Of a DNA stretch of 32,000 bases, positions 2,328 to 2,389 are shown piece by piece. The notes beneath the pieces were generated by a model. It worked only from the letters and a program-made list of their open reading frames with translations. It was not told the DNA's origin and searched no databases. A program made the position numbers and the translations under genes. Numbering within the stretch: position 1 is the stretch's first letter; each line of letters starts with the position of its first letter. This DNA comes from Candidatus Jordarchaeales archaeon (GTDB taxonomy: Archaea; Asgardarchaeota; Jordiarchaeia; Jordiarchaeales; Freyrarchaeaceae). Where the stretch lies: contig JAWCFL010000005.1 of the NCBI GenBank assembly GCA_038858525.1, positions 30,001 through 62,000 on the forward strand, in the 5' to 3' direction.

Positions 2328-2389
2328 GAAGATCAGGTTGTCATGAGCTCTTCATCGTTTCCTCAGACTGGGACGGCGCCATCATCTCC
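2328..2389 (-). ncRNA. Box C/D 2'-O-methylation guide sRNA, D' guide predicted for 23S rRNA Gm2251 (E. coli numbering)
   Basis: Minus strand: GGAG stem, C box ATGATGG, 12-nt guide CGCCGTCCCAGT, D' CTGA, GGAAACG spacer, C' ATGAAGA, 12-nt guide GCTCATGACAAC, D CTGA, CTTC stem. The D' guide is complementary to the conserved P-loop RCUGGGGCGG and the N+5 position falls on G2251. Confidence 0.88.

Follow-up and report, generated by a model that had tools for sequence, protein, structure and literature searches.

The window (the whole stretch of 32,000 nucleotides that was analysed) contains a 62-nt element with a strict dual-guide box C/D layout, which is read on the minus strand from position 2389 to position 2328. 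It lies between the gene for the RNase P subunit Pop5 and an open reading frame for a coiled-coil protein. In the direction of reading, the features of the locus are:

2429–2782, minus strand: gene for the RNase P subunit Pop5, immediately upstream of the element (Pfam PF01900, E 1.9e-18)
2412–2419, minus strand: TATA-like box TTATAAAT, with its midpoint about 26 nt before the sRNA 5' end, a putative promoter element as judged from its position
2386–2389, minus strand: 5' strand of the short terminal stem, GGAG, which pairs with the 3' UCUUC over 3–4 bp including a G.U pair
2379–2385, minus strand: box C, AUGAUGG, identical to RUGAUGA save for the last base
2367–2378, minus strand: D' guide CGCCGUCCCAGU, 12 nt, antisense to the 23S P-loop (helix 80), with N+5 pairing with G2251
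2363–2366, minus strand: box D', CUGA, assigned from the sequence
2356–2362, minus strand: D'–C' spacer GGAAACG, 7 nt, the presumed K-loop linker
2349–2355, minus strand: box C', AUGAAGA, RUGAUGA with one deviation
2337–2348, minus strand: D guide GCUCAUGACAAC, 12 nt, antisense to the 5' strand of 23S helix 89, with N+5 pairing with U2460
2333–2336, minus strand: box D, CUGA, assigned from the sequence
2328–2332, minus strand: UCUUC, which forms the 3' strand of the terminal stem; a U-rich tail comes next (assigned from the sequence)
1641–2321, minus strand: downstream open reading frame for a coiled-coil protein with an HTH-like C-terminal tail, according to its translation

Further upstream on the same strand are the genes for Rpp30, a PF01877 RNA-binding protein and L15e. 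The earlier note had placed the sRNA within an operon of rpl15e and RNase P genes. The position is correct, but the relation to the operon is one of position only: the element has a TATA-like box of its own at about −26, and the place of this box is conserved in homologs. In the homologs counted (f1 and g17), a TATA-like box is located 21–24 nt before the 5' end, and the remaining homologs that were inspected have a similar box upstream. Having a TATA-like box of its own, the sRNA adjoins the L15e–RNase P gene run but appears to possess a separate promoter. The pairing of the two genes is kept in families f1, f2 and f15 and in genome G111, with the sRNA directly downstream of Pop5.

The description of the element as a box C/D sRNA at 2328–2389, with two 12-nt guides and a terminal stem, was borne out. 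The order of C, guide, D', C', guide and D is complete and is enclosed by terminal pairing. Both guide spacers are exactly 12 nt long, and the stem is weak, with only 3–4 bp, G.U included. The seventh base of box C is G instead of the consensus A; among homologs this position is G, A or U, while the GAUG of box C is invariant (alignment A1). The element thus shows the characteristics of archaeal C/D sRNAs, namely boxes C and D with terminal pairing, internal boxes D' and C', spacers of about 12 nt, complementarity of the guides to a target and co-change of guide and target. On the level of sequence, the identity of positions 2328–2389 as a genuine box C/D sRNA is confirmed. The RNA is not predicted to fold stably on itself (z = +0.97), which fits expectation since the guides must be accessible.

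A regular expression for the strict layout, which demands that both spacers be exactly 12 nt, matched once in the 2.09-Mb genome, at the window element, and never in 10 dinucleotide-type shuffles of the genome used as a rarity control. Searching Rfam at the gathering score gave no match on the element, and at relaxed E-values only sub-threshold C/D families were obtained. One of these, RF00095 (snoPyro_CD), aligns end to end (model 1–58, window 2330–2389, minus strand) and keeps the four boxes in register; its 19.9 bits (E 0.067) fall short of the gathering score of 45, so that membership in this family is not indicated. The sole Rfam match at gathering level within the window is a tRNA of 97 nt (15047–15143, plus strand), which, given this length, contains an intron.

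The source genome is a metagenome-assembled genome (MAG) of 63 contigs and is 92.7% complete. Its own 23S rRNA gene was not assembled; genome search and blastn revealed no more than a 3' fragment of 78 nt, located at the edge of a contig (G000:C11:1-78). The 16S rRNA gene is present (G000:C12:4061-5556) and is 97.1% identical to that of the same-genus relative used for target analysis. Because the 23S gene is missing, targets were read from the 23S rRNA of the same genus. The 16S gene and the 23S remnant do not share a contig, and neither do 16S and 23S in the same-genus genome G002; the rRNA genes may therefore be unlinked in this group. The machinery expected for a C/D sRNA is encoded in the genome: fibrillarin (324 bits) and Nop (223 bits) are adjacent genes, and L7Ae is present (103 bits; all by Pfam). 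The genome also carries a eukaryote-like actin gene (G000:C32:12338-13447, L200; Pfam Actin 466 bits, E 4.5e-140), which fits an Asgard affiliation. The Pfam Profilin model did not match in the genome, and the control genomes were likewise silent.

Homologs were collected by BLAST searches of relatives and then with a covariance model that used sequence only and was trained on 14 homologs (A1, R1). The element was found in all four other genomes of the family to which the window belongs, in all six genomes of the sister family and in several families beyond these two. Across the phylum of the window, the model matched at E <= 0.01 in 63 of 151 sampled genomes, weaker matches being inspected in part. 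It did not match in two large families of the same phylum (0/26 and 0/25 genomes). In a second phylum, Thermoproteota, 60 of 151 genomes gave model matches, in a sample centred on a Bathyarchaeota genome. That entry point (L105) came from a pattern scan of contigs of other genomes. The scan, which used a loose pattern, was swamped by chance bacterial matches, and L105 was the only clear homolog among its three archaeal matches; L060 (Bathyarchaeia) lacked the downstream boxes and L093 (Methanomethylophilaceae) did not have the look of a C/D sRNA.

Most of the loci inspected in both phyla carry both guide types, and a few weaker matches are partial. The ends of the homologs are complementary too, for example GGGG/CCC in G004. 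Box D' is CUGA, CCGA, CAGA or CGGA in most homologs and more degenerate in some members from the second phylum. The D'–C' spacer varies from 3 to 20 nt, and box C' is AUGAUGA or AUGAAGA. Box D is CUGA in most homologs, with GUGA, UUGA or CAGA in some, and the D spacer is 12 nt in most of them. The g17 lineage (L017, L018, L019, L021) combines a 13-nt D spacer with the variant D boxes GUGA and UUGA; with this spacer length, the predicted methylated nucleotide would move by one, to G2459. Members of the g20 lineage (L022, L023, L026, L180, L188) have kept the P-loop guide at the D' position and have an unrelated D guide, CCCUGAGGUAU or CCCUGGUGGUAG, for which there is no convincing target in the respective 23S rRNA (best scores 7–8.5). 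By sequence comparison, this is one dual-guide family, directed to the P-loop and to helix 89, across many genomes of the window's phylum and of Thermoproteota.

The D' guide can form 11 contiguous pairs with the P-loop sequence GCUGGGGCGGCA of the same-genus 23S rRNA, which stands in for the unassembled 23S of the organism itself; nine of these are Watson–Crick pairs and two are G.U pairs. The P-loop has this sequence in two same-genus relatives and also in more distant ones. Alignment with E. coli rrlH places the site at E. coli 2247–2258 and N+5 of the D' guide at G2251. The complementarity to the P-loop and the selection of G2251, both proposed in the earlier note, are thereby supported, but its single G-U pair has to be replaced by two in the duplex with the archaeal P-loop. 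Taken by itself the match is unremarkable, as 397 of 1000 shuffled guides equal its score and 50 of 500 equal its contiguous run. Since shuffling a single sequence yields no significance here, the case for the P-loop relies on comparative evidence.

Such evidence comes from 56 homologs in two phyla, in which the core of the D' guide, CCGUCCCAG, is near-invariant. The changes that do occur in the paired core are mostly between U and C opposite a target G, so that pairing is kept; a few divergent members have a guide A opposite C2254 or C2248. Where both the sRNA and a 23S rRNA were available from one genome, the P-loop was the top-scoring site of the organism's own 23S in 9 of 11 cases. To our knowledge, Gm2251 is among the very few rRNA modifications present in all domains of life. 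A methylated G at the equivalent position has been observed in the 23S rRNA of Thermococcus kodakarensis (Gm2353) (PMC12124282), and guidance of this nucleotide by C/D sRNAs has been predicted for three archaea (Dennis et al. 2015; PMC4644070).

A G.U wobble within the GGGG:CCCC tract of the P-loop duplex occurs in 54 of the 56 homologs (L013-L026, L180-L230), a count subject to a small detection bias because the model was trained on U-containing sequences. The wobble U is opposite G2253 in 48 homologs and opposite G2252 in six Sulfolobales-like members, and the duplex is fully Watson–Crick in two. This conservation could reflect selection for a duplex which releases easily.

For the D guide, the best site in the same-genus 23S rRNA and the organism's own 16S rRNA is GUUGUCACGGGC, in the 5' strand of helix 89 (E. 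coli 2456–2467), with N+5 at U2460; of 1000 shuffled guides, 31 score at least as high. Seven Watson–Crick pairs next to box D are followed by an A x C mismatch at C2463 and four further pairs. [quoted passage not shown] In G004, from the sister genus, the D guide pairs at 12 of 12 positions with the 23S rRNA of the same genome. The mismatch, at N+8, is also present when the guide of G003 is compared with its own 23S. It could result in lower methylation, or none, at U2460 in this genus.

Guide and target in helix 89 change together. Among the 11 genomes, 23S A2462 goes with a guide U in four and G2462 with a guide C in seven; U2458 is found with a guide A or G, and C2458 with G; G2456 is found with a guide C or U, and C2456 with G. 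The scores of guides on the targets of their own genome sum to 90, as compared with 71.5 ± 5.1 after permutation, and the real value was reached in 4 of 20,000 permutations; the events are few and clustered on the tree (f1 and f2 belong to one order) and hence represent a handful of changes, not eleven. The earlier note had regarded this guide as lacking an assignable target and as a possible orphan or a guide for tRNA or mRNA. The pairing with helix 89 and the compensatory changes contradict this. As regards tRNAs, aragorn found only 11 in the MAG, and their exclusion as targets is therefore not exhaustive.

According to published predictions, alignment positions U2734 and U2867 are targets in some species (PMC4644070). 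With an offset of 274, which we derived from the ruler of that publication, they are E. coli positions 2460 and 2593. Our literature search found no experimental record of Um2460.

On this evidence, the locus is quite probably the gene for a dual-guide C/D sRNA of about 62 nt, with its own TATA promoter and with predicted methylation targets in the P-loop and in helix 89. The readings that differ from this one are considered below.

It is unlikely that the sRNA serves mainly as an rRNA-folding chaperone which holds helix 80 and helix 89 during 50S assembly, with methylation being secondary or partial. Both targets belong to domain V, where they surround the peptidyl-transferase centre at a distance of about 210 nt from each other, and the combination of the two guides has been kept across two phyla. 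The G.U wobble in nearly all P-loop duplexes (54/56) and the recurrent A x C mismatch in the D duplex are compatible with a sub-maximal stability that is selected for, and a chaperone function of dual guides has already been suggested in the literature (PMC6009581; PMC4644070). The exact 12-nt spacing, together with an N+5 position on a nucleotide that is methylated in another archaeon (PMC12124282), argues that methylation itself is under selection. The present data do not separate the two roles, which are not mutually exclusive.

An improbable variant accepts a real C/D sRNA with a working P-loop guide and directs the D guide to the 5' strand of helix 93, ACCGUCGUGAGA (E. coli 2589–2600, N+5 at U2593), or to both helices. 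This strand contains the 8-bp match to GUCGUGAG that had been reported as the best one for the guide. The match exists; it is, however, a run at chance level (346 of 500 shuffles), and with a score of 3.5 against 9.5 for helix 89 it is not the best site in this lineage. The two strands are related in that they share a CGUCG core, with the helix 93 site 135 nt downstream of the helix 89 site (L004:4081; likewise L003, L006 and L231-L235). In addition, the guide A at position 5, which is mismatched with C2463, would pair with U2596. Three guides from the second phylum, those of G173 (10 vs 7), G293 (8 vs 7) and G245 (7.5 vs 6.5), fit helix 93 better than helix 89. In G026 the two sites tie at 9.5 each. 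In the genus of the window, by contrast, the helix 93 duplex does not extend to the three guide bases that adjoin box D, and within the window's and the sister family helix 89 scores 9.5, 5.5, 11 and 9.5 as against 3.5, 3.5, 5 and 3 for helix 93. Lineage-specific changes in the guide (U6, A10) follow the lineage-specific sequence of helix 89, not the invariant helix 93. As far as sequences allow a judgement, the D-guide family as a whole seems to alternate between these two strands of the catalytic centre, and the better site differs from lineage to lineage. Members of both phyla show the A x C mismatch at N+8; it could provide an easily released duplex or reflect residual pairing with helix 93.

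A function in cis is highly improbable. The element would then primarily be a leader whose K-turn, bound by L7Ae, controls translation of the downstream coiled-coil/HTH gene or the stability of its mRNA. Regulation by L7Ae through K-turns has reportedly been proposed. [quoted passage not shown] (ATG 2321, and not TTG 2327, is the most likely start.) Between the two there is no separate TATA box and no strong terminator. Without a TATA box of its own, the coiled-coil gene may be co-transcribed with the sRNA. Many genomes nevertheless keep both guides although they lack the downstream gene or have it farther off (about 360 nt in f2), the neighbours are unrelated in g17, in g20 and in the second phylum, and the guide sequences follow the rRNA, not the neighbouring gene.

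A chance resemblance to box motifs, or a decayed relic that is not expressed, is scarcely credible: boxes C and C' are each one base off the consensus and the terminal stem is weak, but the layout occurs once in the genome and never in the shuffles, boxes, spacing and guides are kept in two phyla, the promoter box is conserved, and guide and target covary.

Among published RNAs, Sac-sR110 of Sulfolobus acidocaldarius is the closest in design. Dennis et al. found it by RNA-seq (2015, BMC Genomics 16:632; Additional file 1 of PMC4644070), and its layout is the same, with a P-loop guide, CGCCGCUCCAGU, before D' and a guide of the helix 89 type, ...CGCGACGAG, before D. It differs by belonging to another phylum, by a wobble U opposite G2252 instead of G2253 and by the degenerate D' box CUGC. 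Homology was judged by eye and from model matches to relatives, without direct alignment of the published sequence; a near-identical sequence of this type was matched by the model in the second phylum (L216). Both guides of Sac-sR110 are listed as 'NP', that is, with no predicted target (PMC4644070), so that the target assignment for the dual-guide family comes from the present analysis. IHOsR410 of Ignicoccus hospitalis is likewise listed without a target (PMC4644070). Target predictions for these two RNAs are probably missing in that study due to a penalty on G.U pairs or mismatches in the target search. In our search of the literature, no text named sR110 together with S. acidocaldarius.

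The P-loop guide core recurs in other archaeal sRNAs. TtesR107 (Thermoproteus tenax) and IHOsR410 share it, for example as GCCGUCCCAG, and in IHOsR410 it belongs to the D' guide; T. tenax sR7 (a probable attribution) is listed with target G2520, the equivalent of G2251, and sR13 of Methanopyrus kandleri is grouped with the C/D sRNAs for this nucleotide or with the same guide (all PMC4644070). The arrangement is different in T. tenax, where the P-loop guide is at the D position and the guide of the helix 89 type, CCUCGCGACGAG, is on a separate sRNA, TtesR117. In T. tenax, I. hospitalis and M. kandleri alike, the partner guides of the P-loop sRNAs differ from that of the window. A review of the conservation of archaeal C/D sRNAs (PMC7994747) mentions neither the P-loop nor helix 89, and our literature search revealed no paper on C/D sRNAs of Asgard archaea. 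Judged from its sequence, the sRNA of the window is a further member, in another phylum, of an existing but poorly characterized archaeal sRNA family.

In eukaryotes, this P-loop nucleotide is the target of yeast snR67 (Gm2619), human U31/SNORD31 (Gm4196) and Giardia GlsR4 (RF02473), which share the RNP mechanism (PMC7600485). The consensus guide and D' box of GlsR4, CGCCGCCCCAGUCUGA, are one base off the window sequence. Outside boxes and guide, no similarity to GlsR4 was detectable (17.4 bits vs a threshold of 70, E 0.41), and the second guides are unrelated. In GlsR4 the P-loop guide is fully Watson–Crick, whereas the archaeal family keeps the G.U pair. Similarity to the guides of eukaryotic snoRNAs does not prove common descent, as the target constrains the guide. 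By analogy, the window element is a presumptive functional analogue of the eukaryotic P-loop snoRNAs. Bacterial RlmB and mitochondrial MRM1/Pet56 introduce the same modification at the same P-loop guanosine, which is universally conserved (PMC7600485), but these are stand-alone SPOUT enzymes that use no guide RNA.

For the preferred reading, a dual methylation guide, the steps from transcription through RNP assembly to methylation of G2251 and U2460 can be inferred from the established C/D mechanism. The sRNA would have its own TATA promoter, immediately past the Pop5 gene, and be transcribed from there. L7Ae would bind the K-turn formed by C/D and the K-loop formed by C'/D', and Nop5 and fibrillarin would then assemble on the L7Ae-bound motifs. 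Each 12-nt guide would pair with nascent 23S rRNA, and fibrillarin would 2'-O-methylate the nucleotide paired with the guide base five positions upstream of the adjoining box (D' or D). In this way the D' guide would be directed to the P-loop (helix 80) and select G2251; the D guide would be directed to the 5' strand of helix 89, beside the peptidyl-transferase ring, and select U2460, with a weaker secondary fit to helix 93 (U2593).

A far-reaching interpretation, which we consider unlikely, is that of an ancient dual-guide family which predates the split of Asgard archaea and Thermoproteota, whose P-loop guide is directly ancestral to the eukaryotic snoRNAs for the G2251 equivalent (snR67/U31), and whose imperfect duplexes were selected so that a single RNA can escort several helices of the peptidyl-transferase centre while the 50S subunit assembles. 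The imperfections would be the G.U pair in 54 of 56 members and the toggling of the second guide between the sequence-related strands of helices 89 and 93.

No new mechanism is revealed by the sRNA, which is well conserved but otherwise ordinary within its class. Its description documents a guide predicted for Gm2251 in an apparent Asgard archaeon. A two-guide RNA directed to the P-loop and, putatively, to helix 89 is common to this archaeon and to Thermoproteota, including a published Sulfolobus sRNA without assigned targets, and for that RNA, sR110 of S. acidocaldarius, the comparison provides a concrete, testable target assignment. It also adds a small data point on how the snoRNA-guided modification of the catalytic centre in eukaryotes may relate to its archaeal counterpart.
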